DNA from: a virus
Taxonomy: Duplodnaviria > Heunggongvirae > Uroviricota > Caudoviricetes
IMG/VR virus record: IMGVR_UViG_2681813205_000018
Coordinates: 1 to 9,671 of that record
Length of the DNA: 9,671 nt
Reading direction: 5' to 3' (one strand)
This document shows positions 1 to 9,671 of the stretch, piece by piece. The notes under the pieces are model-generated. The model worked only from the letters and a program-made list of their open reading frames with translations. It searched no databases and was not told where the DNA came from. The position numbers and the translations under genes are program-made. How positions within the stretch are numbered: position 1 is the first letter of the stretch; the number at the start of each line of letters is the position of its first letter.

Positions 1-94
1 CATACGCCTCAGGCTGGCTACTTAACCCCTGACCACTGCCGGGTAACTCGAAGTATTGCCCTGCGTTCTGTGGGGCGGGGTGGGTTTATGGATA

Positions 95-150
95 CAATTT
101 ACAAATTAAAATTTAACTGGTCAACATGTTTATTATTAAATTTGTAATTG
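95..150 (-). promoter_or_regulatory. OL/PL-like operator and leftward promoter region
   Basis: Imperfect inverted repeat CAATTTACAAATTAAA (95-110) / TTAAATTTGTAATTG (136-150). On the minus strand a sigma70-like -35 TTGACC (rc of 119-124) and -10 TAAATT (rc of 96-101) with a 17-nt spacer point leftward out of the window. Shares the exact 14-mer TTAAATTTGTAATT with the repressor/cro intergenic region (1378-1391). Confidence 0.35.
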
Positions 151-192
151 CGGGCTGTTGCATCAGTCCCAAAATGGGACTACTATACAGTT

Positions 193-495
193 ATGAAGAT
201 TATCTCAGTTAAAACACTCAGGGATTTTTGGGCGGAGAATCCTGATGCAGAACAACCGCTAAGGGCATGGGTGGATGAGGCGGCAAAAGCTGACTGGAAA
301 AGCCCAGCAGACATTAAGGCACAATACCGAACGGCCAGTATATTGAAAAACCGGCGCGTGGTATTCAACATAAAAGGTAATCATTACCGTTTAATTGTTG
401 CAATTGCGTATCAGCGAGGATGGGTATTTGTTAAATTCATCGGAAACCACAAGGAATACGATGCTATTGATGCTGATACCATCGAACTGGAGTAA
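193..495 (+). CDS. higB: Type II toxin HigB (RelE-fold mRNA interferase family)
   Basis: Same frame as track ORF 148..495, but started at ATG 193 because the track start is a TTG. About 100 aa. Alignable by eye to E. coli HigB (N-terminal I..K.L.D, central VFN..GN..R.V, C-terminal HKEYD). Toxin-first gene order with an HTH antitoxin gene 2 nt downstream. Confidence 0.8.
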   Translation: MKIISVKTLRDFWAENPDAEQPLRAWVDEAAKADWKSPADIKAQYRTASILKNRRVVFNIKGNHYRLIVAIAYQRGWVFVKFIGNHKEYDAIDADTIELE

Positions 496-497
496 GC

Positions 498-857
498 ATG
501 AACATCAAACCTATTCGTACAGAGCAAGATTATGAAGCCGCGTTGCGTGCTGTTGAACCCATGTTCGACAATGAGCCCGAAATTGACACGCCTGAGGGGG
601 ATTTTTTTGAGGTGATGTGTTTGCTAATAGAGGAATATGAAAAAAAACATTATCCCATTGAGCCACCATCCCCAATTGAAGCTATAAGATTTCGCATGGA
701 ACAGCAGGGGCTGACTGTGAAAGATTTGGAACCCGCAATTGGGAAAAAAAATCGGGTTTATGAGGTGTTGAATGGTACCAGAAGCCTTACGTTACCAATG
801 ATTCGCCGTCTTCATAATCAATTTGGTATCCCCCTGGAAAGCCTGGTTGGATTATAA
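498..857 (+). CDS. higA: Antitoxin HigA (XRE-family HTH)
   Basis: 119-aa ORF starting 2 nt after the higB stop. C-terminal HTH segment LTVKDLEPAIGKKNRVYEVLNGTRSLTLPMIRRLHNQFGIP is alignable to the HigA HTH region. Confidence 0.8.
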   Translation: MNIKPIRTEQDYEAALRAVEPMFDNEPEIDTPEGDFFEVMCLLIEEYEKKHYPIEPPSPIEAIRFRMEQQGLTVKDLEPAIGKKNRVYEVLNGTRSLTLPMIRRLHNQFGIPLESLVGL

Positions 858-872
858 AATCTGCTAGTCATT

Positions 873-921
873 TGCCTGATGCTCGTTCCAGAAAAGGAAT
901 GCATCAGGCAGTTTTGTTTTT
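873..921 (+). terminator. Candidate intrinsic terminator after higBA
   Basis: 10-bp inverted repeat TGCCTGATGC (873-882) / GCATCAGGCA (901-910) with inner TTCC/GGAA pairing, followed by GTTTTGTTTTT. Lies between the convergent higA and repressor genes; the 3' arm overlaps the repressor stop codon. Confidence 0.45.
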
Positions 922-1296
922 CTGCCGCAGTAACTCTTCAAGTTTCCGTTTATAGAAATCGCGTTTTTGCTCCATATCACGAATGATCTGCTCTGCGTCG
1001 CTTTGAGGTAACTCATCTAAAAGCGATATGATTTTTCGTTGTTGTTCTGTAAGTTGCGGTTGGTTGTCATTACTGGATACAGCCATTTTATCGCCGAGAG
1101 TTTCTTCTTCCATAAAGAACCAATGGACGGGATGTTGTGAGAGCTCTGCTAATTTTTCCAGTTTATCCATTCTTGGCATCACGCCTTTCAACCAACCTTG
1201 CACGGATTGGGGTTTTACACCAAGACGTCTTCCCAGCTCTGACTGGTTTATATTCAATTCCTGCAACACCTGCTGAAGGCGTTTTACAAAGATCAT
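904..1296 (-). CDS. Prophage repressor, Cro/CI-type HTH (RacR-like)
   Basis: Minus-strand ORF. ATG at 1294-1296 is preceded by GAGGGG; the track start at 1302 is a GTG. N-terminal HTH QSELGRRLGVKPQSVQGWLKG and a charged helical C-terminal tail resembling RacR-type repressors as I recall them. Divergent from the cro-like gene. Confidence 0.7.
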   Translation of the reverse strand: MIFVKRLQQVLQELNINQSELGRRLGVKPQSVQGWLKGVMPRMDKLEKLAELSQHPVHWFFMEEETLGDKMAVSSNDNQPQLTEQQRKIISLLDELPQSDAEQIIRDMEQKRDFYKRKLEELLRQKNKTA

Positions 1297-1338
1297 CACC
1301 ACCCCTCGTAAACTAGTTCCGCGATCCTACAGAAAAAA

Positions 1339-1395
1339 TTGATAAGTGGCATTACAAATAGAAGTTGAAATTTAAATTTAAATTTGTAATTATCG
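1339..1395 (+). promoter_or_regulatory. OR-like operator/promoter region of the immunity switch
   Basis: Intergenic region between the divergent repressor and ydaS-like genes. Palindromic half-sites TTACAAAT (1352-1359) / ATTTGTAA (1382-1389) around an AAATTTAAATTT core. Candidate rightward promoter: -35 TTGAAA (1365-1370), -10 TAATTA (1387-1392). GGAGGG RBS at 1413-1418 precedes ATG 1423. Confidence 0.4.
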
Positions 1396-1422
1396 GTGTC
1401 ATCGTAAAGTTCGGAGGGAAAC

Positions 1423-1683
1423 ATGCAAAAAAGTACTCAAGTGAAAATCCTGTCAATAATGAGCCAATCAGAATTAGGGCGTCGTCTTGGTAAAACACCG
1501 CAAACCATAAGTGGGTGGTTTAAAAAACGAGTGCCAGCGGAGGAGGTTATACCAGCATGTGAGGCGCTTGACTGGGGAGTAACTCCGCATGAATTGCGCC
1601 CTGATAAATACCCTAATCCAACCGATGGTTTACCTGTTGAGTATCAGGCTAACGCACAAGCAGCGGCGGGAGTTGATTCATGA
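1423..1683 (+). CDS. ydaS: Cro-like HTH regulator, YdaS family
   Basis: 86-aa ORF with a strong RBS and an HTH (SQSELGRRLGKTPQTISGWFKK). Occupies the cro position, divergent from the repressor. Its stop overlaps the next start (ATGA at 1680-1683). Confidence 0.75.
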   Translation: MQKSTQVKILSIMSQSELGRRLGKTPQTISGWFKKRVPAEEVIPACEALDWGVTPHELRPDKYPNPTDGLPVEYQANAQAAAGVDS

Positions 1684-2117
1684 AAATCAAGCATGAGCAC
1701 ATCCGCATGGCGATGAATGCGTGGCTGCTTTATCCGAGGGTAGGGCGCAAAAAAATCGCTGATGATATAGCGACAGCATATTTTGAGCTTGAAATGACTT
1801 ATCCACCAATGCATGACACCTCTACGACAGAGGGTATTGGATTGAACATACAAAATATTTTTCGCTGGCTTGAAAAGGATACGCCTGATGCTGTTGAAAA
1901 AATTCAGGCACTAATTCCAGCTATCCTGACTGTTCTTCCGCGTGAACTGCGTTATCACCTCAGTATTTTTGACACTGTTGAGCGCCGTGCATTACTGGCG
2001 GCCCAGGAAGCGTTGAGCACGGCAATTGATGCGCATGATGATGCAGTCCAGGCAGTTTACCGGAAAGCGTATTTCAGCGACGGCGGGTCATCCGGCGAGT
2101 CTGTTGTGGTGCATTGA
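1680..2117 (+). CDS. ydaT: YdaT-like protein (cII-position, Rac prophage toxic protein family)
   Basis: 145-aa ORF translationally coupled to the ydaS-like gene. N-terminus MKIKHEHI and C-terminal RRALLAAQEALSTAIDAHDDAVQAVYRKAYFS match my recollection of E. coli Rac YdaT. Confidence 0.75.
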   Translation: MKIKHEHIRMAMNAWLLYPRVGRKKIADDIATAYFELEMTYPPMHDTSTTEGIGLNIQNIFRWLEKDTPDAVEKIQALIPAILTVLPRELRYHLSIFDTVERRALLAAQEALSTAIDAHDDAVQAVYRKAYFSDGGSSGESVVVH

Positions 2118-2203
2118 TATTTATGCCAGACCCCTGCTGATTCTGTTGATTGGGGAATCACAGAATATCACCAGAGGATGGTTCGTCACAAGATGAGGCA
2201 ATT

Positions 2204-3214
2204 ATGGCCGCATTACCATACATGCAACTGTACATAGCTGATTACCTGGCTGACACCATGCATTTGTCCGCAGAGGAGCACGGTGCGTATTTGTTGCTGA
2301 TGTTCAATTACTGGCAAACAGGGAAACCAATACCTAAAAACAGGCTGGCAAAAATTTCCCGTCTGACTAACGAGCGATGGGCTGATGTGGAACCATCCTT
2401 GCGGGAGTTTTTTTGCGATAACAGCGATGAATGGGTGCATCTTCGGATTGAGGAAGATCTGGCATCAGTCAGGGAAAAATTGACCAAAAAATCAGCCGCC
2501 GGAAAAGCATCTGTTCAGGCCAGAAGAAGCAGAAAGGAAGCATATGTTCAAACAAAACAAGAGAGAGATTTAACAGGTGTTCAAACAAATGTTGGTGTTG
2601 TGTTTGAACATGACGCAAACACAAAAGCAACTAATAAAGATACAGATCTAAAAGAATTAAACCCCACACATAACGTGCGTGAACGCGAGAGTATTCCGAC
2701 CAGTGAGTCGCATGGTGCGCCGTTGCAGACAGCCGAACCTGAATACCTGGACGGCATGAGCGAACCGATCGGGAAATTTTCGATGACTACTGTCTGGCAG
2801 CCGTCGCCGGATTTTCGACAACGGGCAGCAGTGTGGGGTATGGCTCTGCCTGAGCCGGAATTTACACCTGCTGAGCTTGCCGCATTCCGGGATTACTGGA
2901 TGGCGGAGGGGAAGGTTTTCACGCAGGTTCAGTGGGAGCAGAAATTTGCCCGCCACGTGCAGCACGTCAGGGCACAGGTAAAACCAGTCAGCAAGGGGGT
3001 AAGCCATGCAGCATCAGGTGGCACGGCATCACGGGCAGTTCAGGAAATCCGGGCAGCACGCGAACAGTGGGAACGTGAAAACGGATTTATCAGCAACGGA
3101 AACGGCCTGGAAGCTGTGGGAGCTTATGGGGGAGGTGTATTCGAACCGCTGGACTCAGAAGAACGGGGCCGCACCTTCGAAGCTCTGGATTGCCCAGATT
3201 GGTGCGATGACTGA
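2204..3214 (+). CDS. ydaU: Replication initiator, O-like (YdaU/DUF1376 N-terminal domain + DnaT-like C-terminal domain)
   Basis: Frame of track ORF 2150..3214, which starts at a TTG. Chosen start is ATG 2204 (MAALPYMQLYIADYL) with GAGG 7 nt upstream. N-terminal DUF1376-type domain, a low-complexity linker, and a C-terminal FTPAELAAFRDYWMAEG segment resembling the DnaT DNA-binding domain. Immediately precedes the P-like gene. Confidence 0.7.
   Translation: MAALPYMQLYIADYLADTMHLSAEEHGAYLLLMFNYWQTGKPIPKNRLAKISRLTNERWADVEPSLREFFCDNSDEWVHLRIEEDLASVREKLTKKSAAGKASVQARRSRKEAYVQTKQERDLTGVQTNVGVVFEHDANTKATNKDTDLKELNPTHNVRERESIPTSESHGAPLQTAEPEYLDGMSEPIGKFSMTTVWQPSPDFRQRAAVWGMALPEPEFTPAELAAFRDYWMAEGKVFTQVQWEQKFARHVQHVRAQVKPVSKGVSHAASGGTASRAVQEIRAAREQWERENGFISNGNGLEAVGAYGGGVFEPLDSEERGRTFEALDCPDWCDD
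2545..2610. repeat. Candidate origin iterons inside the O-like gene
   Basis: 10-mer TGTTCAAACA occurs directly at 2545 and 2578 and inverted (TGTTTGAACA) at 2601, followed by an A-rich stretch (2615-2660). Lies in the inter-domain linker of the O-like initiator, as ori-lambda lies within O. Confidence 0.3.
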
Positions 3215-3668
3215 ACAGCAAATCCGTCTGGTCTGCCGTCAGTGCATGGACCGCTGCCGGGCGGGTGAAACGTGGCCCCCGGACCTGGCTGAGTTTGTTG
3301 CGCTGATTTCGGAGAGTGGGGCAAATCCATTTGGTCTTACGGTGGATGCCGTGATGGAAGAGTACCGGCGCTGGCGCAATGAATCCTGGCGATACGACGG
3401 GAGTGATAAATACCCGTGGCCACAGCCTGTGCTGTACCACATCTGCCTCGAAATGCGTACCAGAGGGATTGAGCGCCAGATGACGCAGGGTGAGTTAAAA
3501 CTACTTGCAGAACGGCAACTGACGAAATGGGCAAAGCATGTTGGTAACGGGATGAGTGTTCCGCCAGTGCGACGACAACTGGAAGGGGCGAAACACCCGC
3601 AAGGGCCAACGCCAATTGAGCGGCTGAAACAGGAATACGAACGCCGGAAGGCAGCTGGTTTTATTTGA
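3126..3668 (+). CDS. Replication protein P-like (DnaB helicase loader)
   Basis: By-eye alignment to lambda P as I recall it: PPDLAEFVA vs PSPGQFVA, YPW motif, and a C-terminal LT..EL...A...L.......G...P.PV.Q pattern. Start is uncertain: ATG 3126 (GGGAG upstream) is chosen; ATG 3006 would overlap the O-like gene by about 200 nt; ATG 3207 overlaps the O stop. Confidence 0.6.
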   Translation: MGEVYSNRWTQKNGAAPSKLWIAQIGAMTEQQIRLVCRQCMDRCRAGETWPPDLAEFVALISESGANPFGLTVDAVMEEYRRWRNESWRYDGSDKYPWPQPVLYHICLEMRTRGIERQMTQGELKLLAERQLTKWAKHVGNGMSVPPVRRQLEGAKHPQGPTPIERLKQEYERRKAAGFI

Positions 3669-3701
3669 ATCTGAGAAACGATTTTGTCGGAGGAAATTTT
3701 A

Positions 3702-4418
3702 ATGGAAACCGTATTTGACGCACTGAAAGCACTGAAAAGAGCCTCTTCACAGGTAGTGGCGGCCCGCCTTGGAATCAGCCGTGAAGATGCGGTCAACGAA
3801 CTGTGGAAACTGAAGCGCCGCGGTGAAGCGGATAACAAGGGGTCGATGTGGTGGCTGATTCAGGCTGGTGAAAGTGAACCGGTGTCACCGGTACCGAAAG
3901 TGACAGCGCAAATGCTGACTGAGGCGATTGAACAACATGGCCCACAAACGGCGGATGAGCTGGCACTGATGTTCGGGATTACCTCCCGCCGGGCGAATTC
4001 ATCGCTGGCCATGGTAATCAGCAAAGGGCGTCTGATTCGCGTGAATCAGGGCGGTAAATTTCGTTACTGCATACCGGGCGCTGATTTACCGGCAGAGCCG
4101 GAAGCTGCATCCGTAGCGGAAACCGATGGTAAAGCCTTTCCTCAGCCAGCAGGTGTTGCGTTACCAGCTCGGGAAGCAGAAACACAGGAAGAAATAAAAA
4201 CGGAAAGTGTGGCGGTCACAGTGCAGTCACAGCCGTCGTTCACCAGAAAGCATCCGGATGGTCTGATTTTACCATCGCTGCATGTGGCTAACCGCGAGCT
4301 GCGCCGGGCAAAAGGTCAGGTTCAGAAGTGGGAGCGAGTCTGCGCCGCGCTGCGGGAGCTGAACAAGTGCCGGGATATTCTCCGGGATATTACCGCCACC
4401 AGAGAACAGCAGCGGTGA
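3702..4418 (+). CDS. Hypothetical phage protein with two winged-helix-like segments
   Basis: Track ORF 3684..4418 starts at a TTG. ATG 3702 has GGAGG 7 nt upstream. Two HTH-like stretches ([20 protein letters not shown] and [22 protein letters not shown]). Family not recognised. Confidence 0.55.
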
Positions 4419-4450
4419 GTGGGTGGAAGACGTGGTGCCGGGCGGAAATC

Positions 4451-4732
4451 ATGATACTCCGGCAGTGTGCGGGAACGATGAAGGTAAAAAGCGTTGGCGC
4501 ACTTATCGGACGAACTGAAGCGGCAGTGAGAACGAAGGCACGGGAGCTGGGCATCAGCATGATGTTACGTGGTGATTTTCACCCGTCGGCAAAATATTCT
4601 CAGCGTGATATTGAGCTGGCGCGGCAACTGCATCAGAGAGGCATGCAAAGAAGGGAAATTGCCAGAAAATTAGGCATGCCGCTGCGCATAGTGAATAACT
4701 ACGTTTATTTCGACAGGAGGGTGTCTGCGTGA
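4451..4732 (+). CDS. Hypothetical small HTH protein
   Basis: Track ORF 4328..4732 starts at a GTG and overlaps the previous gene. First in-frame ATG after the upstream stop is 4451; ATG 4478 is an alternative. C-terminal QRREIARKLGMPLRIV resembles a sigma-70 region 4 / resolvase-type HTH. Confidence 0.45.
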   Translation: MILRQCAGTMKVKSVGALIGRTEAAVRTKARELGISMMLRGDFHPSAKYSQRDIELARQLHQRGMQRREIARKLGMPLRIVNNYVYFDRRVSA

Positions 4733-4956
4733 AAATCCTGTATCAGGATTACGGCCCGGTGGGGCAGGTGGTTATCAGCAGTACTGTAATGGAGTTTCGG
4801 AAGCATAACCGTGTGGTGGATGCTGTGCTGTTAACCTGTCCGGGGATATCGGCGAGTCGTGCAGGTGTGTTTATTATGAAGACGAAATTATATGGCAGTA
4901 AGGCGTGGATAAAGAAGGCGTATCGTGTAGCGTTGCAGGAGGTTAACAGTGAGTGA
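4729..4956 (+). CDS. Hypothetical protein
   Basis: GTG start at 4729 overlaps the upstream stop (GTGA) and has AGGAGGG 8 nt upstream. 75 aa. No recognisable family. Confidence 0.45.
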   Translation: MKILYQDYGPVGQVVISSTVMEFRKHNRVVDAVLLTCPGISASRAGVFIMKTKLYGSKAWIKKAYRVALQEVNSE

Positions 4957-5260
4957 AATTAAAGAAATGCCGGTAGTTCGTGACGGATATGGCTACTGGA
5001 CACATCCTGAATATGAAAAATTCTGTGATGGTCGGGAATATATTTCAACGGAAGAGTTTAACGCCTGGATGGAGGAAAATAATCTTCAATACGTCCTCTG
5101 CTTCAGAGATGAAGGATGTGCTGACCTTGATGCGTGTGATGCTGATATTTCTGCATGGGAACCGGAACGACCAGAGGGCGATGGCTGGTTTATTGGTTCC
5201 ATTCATGATACGGAAGATGGCCCGGTTTGTGTCTGGTTGCGAAATAAGGCTGAAGCATAA
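4949..5260 (+). CDS. Hypothetical acidic phage protein
   Basis: GTG start at 4949 with AGGAGG 6 nt upstream, overlapping the previous stop. 103 aa, Cys/Asp-rich. The competing track ORF 4980..5285 is in another frame and lacks an RBS. Confidence 0.5.
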   Translation: MSEIKEMPVVRDGYGYWTHPEYEKFCDGREYISTEEFNAWMEENNLQYVLCFRDEGCADLDACDADISAWEPERPEGDGWFIGSIHDTEDGPVCVWLRNKAEA

Positions 5261-5359
5261 AGGCGATAAACCAACTAACAACTAAATACTGAAGATTTAA
5301 ATCAGAAACGATTTTTATTAAATCCTTAACCGGAGGGATTCCTGCACCCTCAGAACATC

Positions 5360-5390
5360 AGGAGGCCGCCCGAAAGGGCGGTAAGAAATG
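5360..5390 (+). promoter_or_regulatory. Shine-Dalgarno plus hairpin translation-initiation structure
   Basis: AGGAGG (5360-5365) lies 22 nt upstream of ATG 5388, but a 6-7 bp GC hairpin (CCGCCC 5366-5371, GAAA loop, GGGCGG 5376-5381) between them would bring the SD to about 6 nt from the start codon when folded. Confidence 0.4.
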
Positions 5391-5606
5391 AAACATTATT
5401 TAGAAAAAAATTACCCACGAAAGAGCAGAACAACAGAGTTTCTGTTTTTCATTCTGTTTATAGTGTTGATGATACCGATATCCCCGCTATTACTGGTCTG
5501 GATAATTGGAAGGACATTTGAACCAGTTATTGAGCTATATACCGATGTGACATGGGAATCATTCAGCGCACTGCACAATAAAATTAATCCGTATAAGGAA
5601 AACTGA
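5388..5606 (+). CDS. Small single-pass membrane protein (hypothetical)
   Basis: 72-aa ORF in a visibly AT-rich segment. One strongly hydrophobic stretch, FLFFILFIVLMIPISPLLLVWIIG, after a basic N-terminus. Confidence 0.5.
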   Translation: MKHYLEKNYPRKSRTTEFLFFILFIVLMIPISPLLLVWIIGRTFEPVIELYTDVTWESFSALHNKINPYKEN

Positions 5607-5607
5607 T

Positions 5608-6165
5608 ATGAGCACTATTACCAGAGAACGCGCGGAGATTAAATCATACATCACAGGCTTCCTGAGCGACTCGGCGCACGATAACAAGTCTTCAGACAGC
5701 CTGCTGGCTAATGTGTTTCGTATCGCGCTGGCATCACTGGAAGCAGAGCCGATAGCAATGGTAGTGCCTGATGAAATGGATTTGCTTACCTGCCATCTCG
5801 ACGGTGTAACTAAAACATATGCTGATGGCTGGAACGCCTGCCGCGTCGCCATGCTTCAGGCCGGAAACTTTCGGGAAAATAAGAATTCGTCAACCAACAA
5901 TTTTCGGGAAATCTCGGAAACGTCAACCAGATCTCCGATAACTCTGGATGGCTGGATAAGCTGTACTGAGCGAATGCCTGAAAAGAGCCAGAACGTGCTT
6001 ATTTCGATGAATATCGATAGCGAGGCTGGGCCATTAATATATTCCGCACGCTATCTCGGAGGCACGTTCCGGCGCGGAGGTATAGCAGTTAGTCCGGGTA
6101 ATGATCTTAGGCAAGCAACCCACTGGATGTCGCTACCAGAACCGCCGCAGGAGGTGAATCAATGA
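5608..6165 (+). CDS. DUF551 domain-containing phage protein
   Basis: ATG 5608 is 1 nt after the upstream stop, with AAGGA upstream. C-terminal WISCTERMPE...THWMSLPEPP matches the DUF551 signature as I recall it. Confidence 0.65.
   Translation: MSTITRERAEIKSYITGFLSDSAHDNKSSDSLLANVFRIALASLEAEPIAMVVPDEMDLLTCHLDGVTKTYADGWNACRVAMLQAGNFRENKNSSTNNFREISETSTRSPITLDGWISCTERMPEKSQNVLISMNIDSEAGPLIYSARYLGGTFRRGGIAVSPGNDLRQATHWMSLPEPPQEVNQ
5866..5931 (+). repeat. Imperfect 33-bp tandem duplication inside the DUF551 gene
   Basis: AACTTTCGGGAAAATAAGAATTCGTCAACCAAC (5866-5898) and AATTTTCGGGAAATCTCGGAAACGTCAACCAGA (5899-5931). Encodes an 11-aa repeat NFRENKNSSTN / NFREISETSTR. Confidence 0.6.
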
Positions 6166-6245
6166 CCTGGCCTGAAGCATTCACAACGGTAGGAATTGCG
6201 ATGGCGGTGGCGCTGGTGGTGTATTCGATTTGCCGCTGGGGATAA
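6162..6245 (+). CDS. Unannotated 27-aa hydrophobic peptide
   Basis: ATG 6162 overlaps the DUF551 stop (ATGA) and has AGGAGG 8 nt upstream (6148-6153). Encodes MTWPEAFTTVGIAMAVALVVYSICRWG, a single predicted TM helix. Absent from the ORF track because of its length. Confidence 0.35.
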   Translation: MTWPEAFTTVGIAMAVALVVYSICRWG

Positions 6246-6503
6246 AAACGGTTTGCGGGAAAAGGATAGTTAAGTAGAATTGCAGCGGGTGCTTGAGGCT
6301 ATCTGCCTCGGGCATGAACACCAACGGCAGATAGAGAAAAGCCCCAGTTAACATTACGCGTCCTGCAAGACGCTTAACATTAATCTGAGGCTCAATCCAT
6401 GCTGAACACATGTAGGTTAGCCTCTTACGTGCCGAAAGGCAAGGAGAAGCAGGCTATTGTTAACACCAAGCTGTAATGTCCCCTTTGAACCATTCTAAAA
6501 TGT

Positions 6504-6530
6504 CCCCAGACAATTCTCTGGGGGATTTTT
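6504..6530 (+). terminator. Terminator-like hairpin immediately upstream of the transposase start
   Basis: Perfect 7-bp stem CCCCAGA (6504-6510) / TCTGGGG (6517-6523) with a 6-nt loop, then ATTTTTC, ending 1 nt before ATG 6532. Confidence 0.4.
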
Positions 6531-6531
6531 C

Positions 6532-7872
6532 ATGATCAAAGAGACTGTTACGATGAGTCATAAGGAACTCCACCGACTTCAGATTATTCAGGAGTCAATT
6601 AATCGACATATTACTCAGGAACAAGCTGCGGCACGCATTGGCATTTCTATTCGGCAGGTTAAACGTCTGGTGCAACGGTATAGAAATGAAGGGCCTTCTG
6701 GTCTGGTTTCCCACCGACGTGGAAAGCGTCCTAATAATTCCTTTTCTACTGAATTCAGAGCAACAGTAATTTCACTCCTCAAAGGCCGTTACGCTGATTT
6801 TGGACCTACGTTTGCGTGCGAAAAATTGCGCGAGATACACGGTTTATCTTTATCCGTTGAAACTCTCAGAAAGTGGATGATAGAAGAGGGGTTATGGCGT
6901 GAACGCCGTCGTAAAATTGCCCGTATATATCAACGCCGCATGCGACGACCATCTTACGGTGAACTGATCCAGATTGATGGCTCACCTCATGACTGGTTTG
7001 AAAATCGAGGCCCCAGATGTACACTGATCGTTTTCATTGATGATGCCACCAGTGCGTTGATGGCGTTGCGTTTTGTGCCTGCTGAAACAACCCGGGCTTA
7101 CATGGAAACCCTCCGGGGTTACCTTGATGATCATGGCGTACCGCTCGCTCTCTACTCTGATAGACACAGTATATTCAGGGTAAATAACCCAGAGCGGGAA
7201 GGTGAGCTGACCCAGTTCACTCGTGCGATAAAGACACTGGGCATCGAGCCAATCCATGCCAACAGCCCGCAGGCAAAAGGGCGGGTAGAGCGCGCCAATC
7301 AGACACTACAGGACAGGCTGGTCAAAGAAATGCGGCTTCAGAATATCAGTGATATTGAAACAGCAAATGCATGGTTGCCGACCTTTATTGAAGCCTATAA
7401 CAACCGGTTCGCTACGTCGCCTCGTACTACTGATAATGCTCATCTTGATGTGCACCATTCTGAAGAGGAACTGGGTTATATCTTCAGCCTACAGGCGAAG
7501 CGCGTTCTGTCTAAAAATCTCACTTTCCAGTACAAAAGCAGTGCGTTTCAGGTACGCAGTGAGGGCCGGGGATATCGACTTAGGCATTCGGTTGTTACTG
7601 TATGCGAGAACTTTGACGGTGAAATTAACGTTCTGTATGACGGGAAAGCGCTGGGCTGGGAAAAGTATGTTGATGGCCCGGAGCCTATACCACTGGATGA
7701 TGAAAAGAGTGTCCATGAACGAGTGGATAATGCCCGTATTGATTTACGCTCAAAATACTATGTTAAACCTAAAGCTGACCATCCCTGGCTTACGCGCCGA
7801 ACGCAAAGTCATCAGCAAGTTAAGCCCCCGAAGTTACCTAAAAAGAAGCCTGATCCCGATAAAATAGATTGA
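6532..7872 (+). CDS. DDE transposase, IS481/ISNCY-like (rve integrase core, N-terminal HTH)
   Basis: 446-aa ORF. N-terminal HTH (ITQEQAAARIGISIRQVKRLVQRY). Catalytic triad candidates in LIQIDGS, LYSDRHS and AKGRVERANQ with integrase-like spacing. Pattern resembles IS481-family transposases (IVFIDDATS..., PQAKGRVE). Alternative start ATG 6553. Confidence 0.8.
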   Translation: MIKETVTMSHKELHRLQIIQESINRHITQEQAAARIGISIRQVKRLVQRYRNEGPSGLVSHRRGKRPNNSFSTEFRATVISLLKGRYADFGPTFACEKLREIHGLSLSVETLRKWMIEEGLWRERRRKIARIYQRRMRRPSYGELIQIDGSPHDWFENRGPRCTLIVFIDDATSALMALRFVPAETTRAYMETLRGYLDDHGVPLALYSDRHSIFRVNNPEREGELTQFTRAIKTLGIEPIHANSPQAKGRVERANQTLQDRLVKEMRLQNISDIETANAWLPTFIEAYNNRFATSPRTTDNAHLDVHHSEEELGYIFSLQAKRVLSKNLTFQYKSSAFQVRSEGRGYRLRHSVVTVCENFDGEINVLYDGKALGWEKYVDGPEPIPLDDEKSVHERVDNARIDLRSKYYVKPKADHPWLTRRTQSHQQVKPPKLPKKKPDPDKID

Positions 7873-7926
7873 AACCAAGATCGATTCGGTTGAGTGCATA
7901 TCCATTCATAGGGTAGATTCTTAAGT

Positions 7927-7993
7927 CGCGTTTCTGGTGTTCATTTTCGGGGGGGGGGGTTACTTGTTTTACCGGGGATATGCCAGAAACGCG
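7927..7993. repeat. Perfect 11-bp inverted repeat enclosing a G11 homopolymer
   Basis: CGCGTTTCTGG (7927-7937) and its exact reverse complement CCAGAAACGCG (7983-7993), separated by 45 nt that contain eleven consecutive G (7949-7959). Confidence 0.6.
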
Positions 7994-8190
7994 CTGAGTC
8001 AGTCTGGGCGGTGCGCGTAATGGGACGTTATGGTAAATACCATTCTGCAATAACTATCCATGTATAGATCATCCTTTATCTCCGTATGGCATAACCCATC
8101 AGAATCCATTAAGCATGACAAAACCTTCTTTATAAATAGCACTTTCAGTAGTACTTGATGTAGAAAATTGATTGGCATTTGTGTTTTTAC

Positions 8191-8219
8191 TTGATATCTC
8201 CGTGATATACTGATATTAA
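8191..8219 (+). promoter_or_regulatory. Candidate sigma70 promoter for the two-gene cassette
   Basis: -35 TTGATA (8191-8196), 17-nt spacer, -10 TATTAA (8214-8219) in an AT-rich intergenic region about 50 nt upstream of ATG 8273. Confidence 0.3.
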
Positions 8220-8272
8220 TTAAAGCGTAAATTATCTAAAACTAGATTTTCAATATGTTATAGGTGGTTCAA

Positions 8273-8806
8273 ATGCCAGGTACTAGGTGTGTTACTGTTC
8301 TTACTGCTCGTGGAATTACTGAGATTTTAAAAACAGGTGGAAGCAAAGCCTGGAGACTCAATGCAACCCATGCAGGAAAATGTTCGTATGTTGTTTGCGT
8401 TCAGAACTCGAAGATTGATTGGGGAACCCAGGAGGCAAAGCATCACCATGCTTTTATGATTGGCCGTATTTCTGGGATTAGCAGGATTCCAGACCATCCC
8501 AAGAAGCGTTGGATAATCAACATTGATTCTTATGCTGAGATTGATATCCCTGACCAATGGGATGGAAACCGGAATCCGGTTTCTTACCGAAACCTTGAGG
8601 ATATGGGGATAGATCTTGATACTCTCGATTTTAAACCTGTTGGTCATATTGTATCTGGAATAAAACAGACTAGTGGTGACGAATACGATGAGTATGAAGA
8701 AGTTGATGTCAGCGATAGACCTTTAAGCCTGAAAGAAGCTAAGGCTGGTCTAGCACTTCATTTTGGCGTCAATGAGGATGACATTCAGATCACTATTAAG
8801 GGGTGA
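8273..8806 (+). CDS. Hypothetical protein (unrecognised family; first gene of IS-flanked cassette)
   Basis: ATG 8273 with AGGTGG 5 nt upstream; the track start at 8264 is a GTG. 177 aa: basic N-terminal domain of about 120 aa, acidic linker (DEYDEYEEVDVSD), short C-terminal segment (LSLKEAKAGLALHFGVNEDDIQITIKG). AT-rich codon usage unlike the flanking phage genes. Confidence 0.6.
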   Translation: MPGTRCVTVLTARGITEILKTGGSKAWRLNATHAGKCSYVVCVQNSKIDWGTQEAKHHHAFMIGRISGISRIPDHPKKRWIINIDSYAEIDIPDQWDGNRNPVSYRNLEDMGIDLDTLDFKPVGHIVSGIKQTSGDEYDEYEEVDVSDRPLSLKEAKAGLALHFGVNEDDIQITIKG

Positions 8807-8811
8807 CCTTT

Positions 8812-9396
8812 ATGGAATCATTCTCTGTTGAGCATTGGTTACCACAGGCTACTGCTGGAGATAGTCAGGCTAGATTTTATTTGGGGAAGATATTCTCATG
8901 CGGGCTGGGTGTTCATCAGGATTATAAGCTGGCTATATACTGGTTTCAGCTTGCAGCGGAGCAAGGCCATGATGATGCCCAGTTTAATCTTGGGTGGGTA
9001 TATCATTTGGGGTTAGGTGGATATAAACATGTCCAAAAAGCGTCTGAATGGTATCAGAAGGCCGCTCTGCAAGGTCATGCAGAGGCTCAGTTTCATCTAG
9101 GAAGGCTGTATGCTTTCTCTTATTTAAGAAATGATGGGCTTGCAGTTGAATGGTTTCTCTGTGCCGCGAAGCAAGGCTATAGTAGTGCGCAATTTAAACT
9201 TGGCTGGATGTATCATCTCGGTATGGGCGTTGAGCAAAGTGACAGGCAGGCTTTCCATTGGTTTATTCGGGCTGCTGAGCAAGATCATGCAGGGGCTCAG
9301 GCATCTCTTGGTGAGATGTATAAGCATGGGTGGGGAGTCGAGCAAGACGAAACGATGGCACAGTATTGGTTTCGACTCGCAAGAACAATGCCATAG
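8812..9396 (+). CDS. Sel1-repeat (TPR-like) protein
   Basis: ATG 8812 with AAGGGG 8 nt upstream, 5 nt after the upstream stop. At least five tandem Sel1-type repeats (e.g. AIYWFQLAAEQGHDDAQFNLGWVYHLGLG; ASEWYQKAALQGHAEAQFHLGRLY; AFHWFIRAAEQDHAGAQASLGEMYKHGWGV). No signal peptide evident. Confidence 0.8.
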   Translation: MESFSVEHWLPQATAGDSQARFYLGKIFSCGLGVHQDYKLAIYWFQLAAEQGHDDAQFNLGWVYHLGLGGYKHVQKASEWYQKAALQGHAEAQFHLGRLYAFSYLRNDGLAVEWFLCAAKQGYSSAQFKLGWMYHLGMGVEQSDRQAFHWFIRAAEQDHAGAQASLGEMYKHGWGVEQDETMAQYWFRLARTMP

Positions 9397-9400
9397 CATC

Positions 9401-9424
9401 AAGCCCGCCCTGCGGGCTTTTTTA
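9401..9424 (+). terminator. Rho-independent terminator of the cassette
   Basis: 8-bp stem AAGCCCGC (9401-9408) / GCGGGCTT (9412-9419) with a 3-nt loop, followed by a T-run, 5 nt after the Sel1 gene stop. Confidence 0.7.
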
Positions 9425-9671
9425 TGTGTCAAGGCTAAGTTCAGATGTCCGTCGTAGGGCAAAGTTCAAATGTCCTCTCTGTGCCTATAACCTCTTCTGA
9501 GTAAAAGGTGAGGTGTACTGGCAATAGCGGACACTACCATTTGTTCTTTTTTTAAGCAGCCATCTGATGATATTTTTCCCTGAAGGCTGCCGGGGAGATA
9601 TTCCCCAGACGAGAGTGACGACGCTGACGATTGTAGAAAATCTCAATGTATTCCCGTATTACTGAGATGGC
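9425..9671 (-). mobile_element. IS3-family insertion sequence, 3' end (continues beyond window)
   Basis: Contains the C-terminal end of an IS3-family OrfB on the minus strand. Plus-strand TGTGTCAAGG at 9425 is consistent with an IS3-type ...CA terminus. Subterminal direct repeats AAGTTCAGATGTCC (9438-9450) / AAGTTCAAATGTCC (9463-9476). Exact end not established. Confidence 0.45.
9552..9671 (-). CDS. IS3-family transposase OrfB, C-terminal fragment (truncated by window edge)
   Basis: Minus-strand translation from the window edge reads AISVIREYIEIFYNRQRRHSRLGNISPAAFREKYHQMAA then stop (plus 9552-9554). The FYNRQRRHS.LG..SP..F motif is the conserved C-terminus of IS3-family OrfB transposases. 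Confidence 0.7.
   Translation of the reverse strand, partial: AISVIREYIEIFYNRQRRHSRLGNISPAAFREKYHQMAA

Follow-up and report, generated by a model that had tools for sequence, protein, structure and literature searches.

A plasmid-derived gene in a Rac-like prophage belongs to a large, unnamed protein family with a predicted PUA-like fold

Introduction

PUA-like sensors are already known in defence. EVE domains are found in toxin–antitoxin (TA) and type IV restriction systems, where an accessory role has been predicted for them (PMC7641849), and the PUA-like domains of Metis and PUA-Cal-HAD are sensors of N6-methyl-deoxyadenosine monophosphate (m6dAMP). In EVE-nuclease type IV restriction a nuclease domain (HNH, GIY-YIG, PD-(D/E)xK or PLD) is fused or adjacent to the reader, and the sensors of Metis (MisA) and PUA-Cal-HAD carry a fused metallophosphatase, calcineurin-like enzyme or membrane effector and work alongside a MisB or HAD partner. 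Here we analyse a two-gene cassette in a 9,671-nt stretch of DNA (hereafter the window) that comprises positions 1–9,671 of the IMG/VR record IMGVR_UViG_2681813205_000018 (Caudoviricetes). Its first gene, gene A (8273–8806, plus strand), encodes a 177-residue protein with a predicted PUA-like fold, and its second, gene B (8812–9396, plus strand), encodes a 194-residue Sel1-repeat protein.

Gene A shares individual features with each of these described systems and departs from all of them. Like Metis and PUA-Cal-HAD, it has a PUA-like domain, predicted in its case, and is carried in E. coli and related hosts, and the abortive-infection logic of those two systems is also the one that we propose for gene A. 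In contrast, domain scans and the operon content of gene A loci reveal neither the fused effector nor the MisB or HAD partner of these systems, and the partner of gene A, where there is one, is a Sel1-repeat protein. The reader–nuclease arrangement of type IV restriction is likewise not seen, as Pfam, NCBIfam and PADLOC find no second domain in gene A, its C-terminal 28 residues are too short for one, and its neighbours in the window are the Sel1 gene and insertion sequence (IS) elements. Compared with the EVE, YTH and ASCH readers (PH1033, THYN1 and YTHDC1, and the EVE domains of VcaM4I and PD-T4-3), gene A has no detectable sequence similarity to the corresponding Pfam models, possesses a conserved 28-residue C-terminal tail of its own, and lacks a fused nuclease or other effector.

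Results

A word-indexed search returned 131 homologues of gene A, and an exhaustive profile search returned at least 967 clusters at 50% identity, 757 of which score below 1e-10. These searches show a large and unnamed family, mostly proteobacterial and carried by mobile elements, nearly all of whose members are 160–195 residues long and have the same layout. Gene A itself has no match in Pfam at E ≤ 0.1, in NCBIfam or in PADLOC-DB v2; against the system models of PADLOC-DB v2.0.0 it hits 0 families and matches no known anti-phage system. It does match PHROG 37247 (4e-64), for which no function is annotated. The first-pass annotation, made from the sequence alone, had assigned gene A to no recognisable family, which remains correct for Pfam, NCBIfam and PADLOC but not for PHROG, nor does it do justice to the size of the family found here.

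The protein is organised into a PUA-like region of the EVE/YTH/ASCH type (predicted; residues ~1–122), a disordered acidic linker (127–147) and a conserved C-terminal tail (149–177), with no hydrophobic segment in its hydropathy profile. Alignment of the ~120-residue N-terminal domain (N-domain) identifies W27, the VCVQN motif at 41–45, H57, F61, R79, Y87, W96, N101, P102 and Y105 as invariant, and invariant aromatic, arginine, histidine, asparagine and cysteine residues are abundant in this domain. The linker, while acidic, varies between family members, and the tail of ~28 residues has the consensus PLTIxEAKAGLAxxFGVxxxxIEITI. When gene A was tested for a PUA-like pseudo-barrel, this fold was predicted, and the folds nearest to it are non-catalytic readers. 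Structural neighbours in BFVD consist only of two small uncharacterised phage proteins, from Aeromonas phage phiAS5 and Erwinia phage Yoloswag.

None of 59 family members matches a PUA-clan Pfam model (EVE PF01878, ASCH and YTH included) at E ≤ 10, no other family appears consistently, and a sequence search of the Protein Data Bank yields chance matches to eL37 only (E ≥ 0.29). Since there is no PUA-clan profile match even at this permissive threshold, we place gene A in a new sequence family, whose predicted fold is PUA-like, and not in the EVE, YTH or ASCH families. The invariant W27, F61, Y87, W96, Y105, H57, N45 and R79 are compatible with an aromatic or hydrophobic pocket for a modified base. 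As for the tail, no significant similarity to AbrB/MazE or to a helix-turn-helix (HTH) was detected, the HTH segment of HigA scoring a non-significant E of 0.31. The possibility that the tail supplies one half of an AbrB/MazE swapped hairpin was rejected, with an hhalign probability below 1%.

One informative genomic setting is that of the P2-like prophages, to which 15 viral contigs with gene A at 69–71% identity belong. In these relatives gene A lies between the terminase/portal genes (gpP/gpQ) and the gene for the replication protein gpA, and a PGAP-annotated E. coli example has the same gpQ–gpA layout. This interval is a published defence hotspot of P2 (Rousset et al. 2022, PMC9122126), and a 2026 survey found its cargo to be largely defence, with anti-defence rare and with exchange between the hotspot and plasmids (PMC13586616). 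The slot beside gene A is variable and holds Old-like, PD-T7-4-like, DndB/DpdB-like or PDC-M03 genes, so that, as in the tin/old-type cargo described for this hotspot (PMC9122126), the 69–71% relatives sit next to known defence genes; like other cargo of this hotspot, the gene A family also occurs on plasmids. Gene A occupies the P2 slot in only 8 of 5426 complete E. coli genomes, and it is therefore variable cargo rather than backbone. The window copy differs from these relatives in that it lies outside the gpQ–gpA hotspot, as an IS-bounded plasmid fragment in the early region of a lambdoid, Rac-like prophage, after a DUF551 gene and a truncated hok.

Two further features of the P2-like prophages may be recorded here. 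In E. coli A41 (locus L091, 2793–4444) and in locus L065 (2795–4443) the slot by gene A is occupied by the candidate system PDC-M03, whose B protein is annotated by PGAP as a HIRAN-domain protein. Just past gpA, P2-like prophages with gene A have a gene for a Dam-type (D12 class) N6-adenine methylase (L058, 8780–9721; L091, 8795–9652), which would be relevant if gene A reads N6-methyladenine.

Fusion relatives provide a second line of contextual evidence. In one representative, encoded next to an Abi_2 gene, the N-domain is fused to an abortive-infection domain (AbiTii); in another it is fused to the antitoxin domain MazE, and an overlapping gene for the toxin PemK/MazF comes next. In these two relatives the N-domain looks like an accessory sensor for Abi- or TA-type effectors, in agreement with what has been predicted for EVE domains (PMC7641849) and with the PUA-like m6dAMP sensors of Metis and PUA-Cal-HAD. 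A third unusual relative carries the N-domain duplicated in tandem. Together with the relatives in the P2 hotspot, the AbiTii and MazE fusions lend contextual support to a role in defence, which we infer for gene A on these grounds.

Outside the P2 hotspot, the genes within two positions of gene A differ widely among ~45 non-redundant loci (ParA, Mob, TraD, phage tail, terminase and integrase), and defence genes are sporadic. We found one HmaA/SNF2 helicase and one protein with weak matches to PbeA and a type IV restriction endonuclease, and further sporadic matches near solo gene A to DpdH, AbiEi and methyltransferase models. A hidden conserved partner of solo gene A was considered and rejected, as no gene recurs across these loci.

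Gene B matches the Sel1 family model with five repeats (Pfam PF08238, 4.1e-42; 141.6 bits against a gathering cut-off of 30.7). It has no signal peptide and no hydrophobic segment, its hydropathy maximum being 0.66, and its earlier description as a cytoplasmic Sel1-repeat protein is borne out; the products of both genes are probably cytoplasmic. Scans with Pfam, NCBIfam and PADLOC reveal no toxin-like domain in gene B, the only PADLOC hit being a 17-bit partial match to the PtuA model. One protein related to gene B, with 45% identity across 78% of the query, is a TIR–Sel1 fusion adjoining a Fic/MarR gene (L088, 220–1218; L089, 248–1246), which indicates that Sel1 arrays of the gene B type can be joined to a classic immune effector domain.

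The distribution of the two genes is strongly unequal. By tblastn, gene A is present on 183 plasmids, most of them small and mobilizable, from Acinetobacter (60), Salmonella, Escherichia, Enterobacter, Citrobacter and Klebsiella. A Sel1 gene of the gene B type (at least 85% identity) is carried by 23 of the 183, every time directly downstream of gene A. In a third A–B lineage gene B is 80% identical and follows the C-terminus of gene A after a 4-nt gap, so that in three sublineages A and B are invariably neighbours. The two main sublineages share 73% identity in gene A and 87% in gene B, and outside this clade the relatives of gene B fall to 39% identity and lie in unrelated contexts. Conversely, a scan of 74 loci found a Sel1 open reading frame (ORF) within 5 kb on either side of gene A in the four paired plasmids and in none of the other 70, and there was none near gene A in three annotated ColE1 plasmids or in a jumbo phage. 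Gene A stands without gene B on ColE1 plasmids of K. oxytoca, Rahnella (pHW114A) and C. freundii, and is the sole accessory gene on Acinetobacter Rep3+Mob plasmids. The literature on pHW114A and on pLST424C-10, a plasmid that carries the closely related cassette described below, holds no functional information.

On this distribution gene B is a late addition that is limited to one plasmid clade. Because most lineages carry gene A alone, gene A is self-sufficient, and an obligate toxin/immunity pair is unlikely. The first-pass annotation had likened the two-gene unit to anti-phage or toxin/immunity modules and had suggested a co-occurrence analysis to examine it. That analysis upholds the unit only in part: gene B always follows gene A directly and adjacency is strict within one plasmid clade, but the great majority of gene A loci have no Sel1 gene. 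Type II TA systems, with a recognisable toxin and a pair conserved throughout the family, offer a poor match for genes A and B. A likeness to MazEF-type operons does exist, in the two small genes 4–5 nt apart, in a palindromic repeat over the candidate promoter and in the one family member in which an N-domain–MazE antitoxin precedes MazF. However, gene B is a Sel1 scaffold without a toxin domain and gene A is mostly partnerless.

The palindromic repeat forms a candidate operator (8150–8195, plus strand), comprising an AGTACT palindrome at 8150–8155 and two copies of TACTTGAT at 8152–8159 and 8188–8195, the second of which overlaps the proposed −35 element. These are the only two occurrences of TACTTGAT in all 9671 bases. 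In the otherwise diverged upstream regions of gene A from eight plasmids, AGTAC is invariant and among the few blocks that are, and across loci that include ColE1 plasmids and P2 prophages the 200 nt ahead of gene A show a 16-fold enrichment of AGTACT. The consensus of the motif is A-GTAC-T, and in Acinetobacter plasmids the corresponding 200 nt contain six GTAC cores, a number reached in 0 of 5000 shuffles. Two of these six cores lie in a long perfect palindrome with arms of ~22 bp, ATACAAATAAAACCGCATGTACTAATATTAGTACATGCGGTTTTATTTGTAT (L010, about 4060–4115; L015, about 3110–3165), whose symmetry is preserved because the differences between L010 and L015 compensate one another; it might act in bidirectional termination or as a site for protein binding. 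The AGTACT motif was not found upstream of gene A in clades at or below 47% identity. As gene A is the only gene common to the replicons that share the motif, the simplest reading is that the repeats are a putative operator for autoregulation by gene A. A connection with the SOS response or translesion synthesis (umuDC in Comamonas, polB in Acidovorax and a DinI-like gene in P2) was set aside, since it does not recur and AGTACT is no LexA box.

The cassette in the window is of plasmid origin. A block on the plus strand (7895–9427), consisting of the upstream region, both genes and the terminator, aligns by blastn to the E. coli plasmid pLST424C-10 (L002) at 97.7% identity, from 7951 to the 4.6-kb Enterobacter plasmid pEr982-3 (L001) at 97.9%, and from 8018 to a Citrobacter IncFIB plasmid (L003) at 99.5%. 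All three alignments stop at 9427, three bases past the terminator. Both genes are intact and 99.4–99.5% identical to the plasmid copies, and the promoter region, the Shine-Dalgarno sequences and the terminator are kept. No near-identical DNA was found among complete E. coli genomes or phage records. The window is 100% identical to the Rac-like prophage of E. coli O26 strains over 4900–6457 and diverges from 6458. These alignments show the cassette to be a ~1.5-kb fragment of a small ColE1-type plasmid, captured in a Rac-like prophage of an O26-like strain; recent acquisition, as suggested earlier, is thereby supported and the source narrowed to small enterobacterial plasmids.

To the left, the identity to the O26 prophage ends within hok. 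In O26 strains the annotated Hok/Gef coding sequence starts at the site equivalent to 6456; in the window hok is interrupted at 6457 and its remainder is not found again. An ISNCY-family element (6458–7894, plus strand; right end approximate) directly abuts the first two bases of the hok start codon, and plasmid homology starts at 7895. Its transposase (6532–7872; NCBIfam ISNCY_2, 1.4e-139) confirms the IS481/ISNCY-like element that had been placed on this side, and a search for terminal inverted repeats found none. An ISNCY element in the Citrobacter IncFIB plasmid (L003), 73% identical to that of the window, occupies the same position in hok, both copies lying directly after the ‘AT’ of the start codon (window 6418–6460; L003 433–475). 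The region upstream of both, TAGCCTCTTA...GCAAGGAGAAG.AGGC.AT, we take to be the hok translation-initiation region, as in R1 hok/sok. The shared position looks like a target specificity of this IS group for hok, or like an old insertion that travels with the truncated gene.

To the right, a 64-nt spacer (9428–9491) contains an imperfect direct repeat, AAGTTCAGATGTCC (9439–9452) and AAGTTCAAATGTCC (9463–9476), and matches neither the plasmid copies, nor IS600, nor any other locus examined. It is followed by the end of an IS600 element of the IS3 family (about 9492–9671, minus strand) that runs off the window. Its transposase C-terminus is FYNRQRRHSRLGNISPAAFREKYHQMAA before the stop codon, and annotated IS600 copies from 2908 E. 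coli genomes match the element at 97–98% nucleotide identity. The IS3-family element expected on this side is thus present, but it starts at about 9492, 64 nt past the end of the block. A composite transposon was rejected, as the flanks differ (ISNCY on the left, IS600 on the right) and the 64-nt spacer is unrelated.

Within the block, gene A starts with ATG, five bases after an AGGTGG Shine-Dalgarno sequence (8262–8267), and its stop codon is separated from the start of gene B by exactly 5 nt (8807–8811), as first annotated; the Shine-Dalgarno sequence of gene B, AAGGGG, is at 8798–8803. The intrinsic terminator (9401–9424, plus strand), also recognised earlier, was called by a terminator scan and reads AAGCCCGC-CCT-GCGGGCTT followed by TTTTAT. 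Its hairpin (9401–9419) has a stem of 8 bp with six GC pairs and precedes a T-run, and the sole Rfam match, a sub-threshold Trp_leader at 9361–9425, is this hairpin itself. The candidate σ70 promoter (8191–8219, plus strand) was read from the sequence as TTGATA, 17 nt and TATTAA with a TGn extended −10, and is kept in the plasmid copies of 99% identity in the upstream comparison. As a promoter of the cassette’s own it is plausible, but a consensus scan did not call it, and the whole region holds one promoter-like site against 4.0 expected from shuffles, so that the assignment is without statistical support.

The base composition sets the cassette apart less than had been supposed. Its GC content of 43.8% (gene A, 42.7%; gene B, 46.8%) compares with 48.4% for the prophage part, whose ORFs range from 36 to 57%, and only the 312-nt intergenic stretch upstream (7961–8272; 35.9%) is clearly AT-rich; the description of the cassette as markedly AT-rich was overstated. 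Further upstream, a perfect 11-bp inverted repeat read from the sequence (7925–7996), CGCGTTTCTGG and CCAGAAACGCG, brackets a run of 12 G (7949–7960). The repeat is degenerate but present in pLST424C-10 (L002, about 730–795) and could be a plasmid hairpin element (ssi-like), while the G run is a potential slippage site.

Two other features of the window were recorded in passing. At its left end, ORFs of 115 and 119 residues at 148–857, 3 nt apart, resemble a HigB/HigA-like TA pair, judged by eye from their translations. A 72-residue ORF at 5388–5606, the most AT-rich of the prophage part (GC 35.6%), matches PHROG 1832, ‘released from the phage upon host infection’ (1e-44).

Discussion

We favour, tentatively and with somewhat less than even confidence, a reading in which gene A is a stand-alone sensor of modified nucleobases in phage exclusion that benefits the plasmid or prophage carrying it, with the Sel1 protein as a clade-specific adaptor or held effector. 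The N-domain would provide a pocket for a modified nucleobase, whether that base is part of a nucleic acid or of a free nucleotide such as m6dAMP, and gene A would act as the sensor of an exclusion function resembling abortive infection. The C-terminal tail, which stands where the fusion relatives have AbiTii, or MazE with a MazF gene after it, may serve as an output or partner-binding element. In the ColE1 clade, the translationally coupled Sel1 protein could contact gene A and either link it to a protein target or be an effector that gene A restrains. The AGTACT/TACTTGAT repeats over the promoter would form the operator, in the simplest case for autoregulation by gene A.

Several observations weigh against this reading. 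The standard gene A protein has no recognisable effector domain; we know of no effector activity in proteins composed of Sel1 repeats only; the neighbours of gene A outside the P2 hotspot are heterogeneous and rarely defence genes; and the AbiTii and MazE fusions amount to one representative each among the 150 family representatives listed. Homologues in a lytic jumbo phage also count against it, and they fit an anti-defence role at least as well. Such a role, in which gene A shields methylated or otherwise modified bases of incoming DNA, plasmid or phage, from type IV enzymes, or sponges up the m6dAMP-like alarm signals that trigger Metis or PUA-Cal-HAD, would suit a reader-type fold without an effector domain and its occurrence as sole cargo on multicopy plasmids, and m6dAMP is a validated ligand class of PUA-like sensors. 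The phage origin of both BFVD neighbours, phiAS5 and Yoloswag, and the Dam-type methylase of the P2-like phages with gene A point in the same direction. We nevertheless regard it as unlikely, given that anti-defence genes are rare in P2 hotspots (PMC13586616), that the AbiTii and MazE (MazEF) fusions suggest a sensor–effector role, and that a prophage or plasmid would gain little by disabling abortive infection of its host.

It is less probable still that gene A is an autoregulated, antitoxin-like DNA-binding regulator that binds the AGTACT repeats and controls its own operon, and possibly plasmid or prophage functions, its PUA-like domain being a ligand-sensing or DNA-binding module and gene B, in the ColE1 clade, the regulated or neutralised partner of a TA-like pair. 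The conservation of AGTACT/GTACT repeats in replicons with only gene A in common, their overlap with the −35 element in the window, the 4–5-nt spacing of A and B, the operon layout shared with N-domain–MazE and MazF, and the weak, non-significant resemblance of the tail to HigA all speak for such a regulator. Yet the tail comprises only ~28 residues without significant similarity to AbrB/MazE or an HTH, gene B has no toxin-like domain, most copies of gene A have no downstream partner, and the motif is absent from the more distant clades. An ASCH/PUA-type enzyme whose substrate is a modified nucleotide or nucleic acid, such as an amidohydrolase of the YqfB kind or a ribonuclease resembling ZmASCH, with the invariant Cys42, His57, Asn45 and Arg79 as catalytic residues, seems to us improbable, as there is no sequence match to ASCH and the nearest folds are non-catalytic. 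We are equally doubtful that the cassette is a neutral hitch-hiker, functionless in the prophage and left as debris of IS-mediated recombination with a plasmid. The two unrelated flanking IS elements, the truncated hok, the orphan 64-nt spacer and the absence of the cassette from complete E. coli genomes are what debris would leave behind, but both ORFs and their expression signals have been retained at near-identity to the plasmid copies, and the gene A family is conserved across about 1000 clusters.

With sensors of this fold established in defence systems, what is new here is an effector-less, predicted PUA-like protein with a conserved tail of its own, spread over about 1000 clusters, often the sole cargo of small plasmids and paired with Sel1 in one clade, which is not described in the libraries and literature that we searched. 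A bolder proposal, to which we assign only a small chance, is that gene A represents a widespread new class of PUA-like proteins that have no effector and work solely by binding a modified nucleotide or modified DNA. Such a protein would be a single-gene phage-exclusion factor, or a sponge or shield against Metis, PUA-Cal-HAD or type IV restriction, autoregulated through AGTACT, with the Sel1 adaptor recruited in one plasmid clade.

Roughly one thousand clusters at 50% identity make up the family, for which Pfam has no model and PADLOC-DB v2.0.0, the one defence catalogue searched, has no entry, and many small ‘cryptic’ plasmids of Enterobacteriaceae and Acinetobacter carry gene A, often as their only cargo. 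If gene A is indeed a stand-alone sensor of modified bases in phage exclusion or counter-defence, it would offer a compact and easily cloned test case of 0.5–1.2 kb, would extend the growing range of PUA-like immune sensors by an architecture without an effector, and would explain the persistence of these plasmids in clinical and environmental strains.

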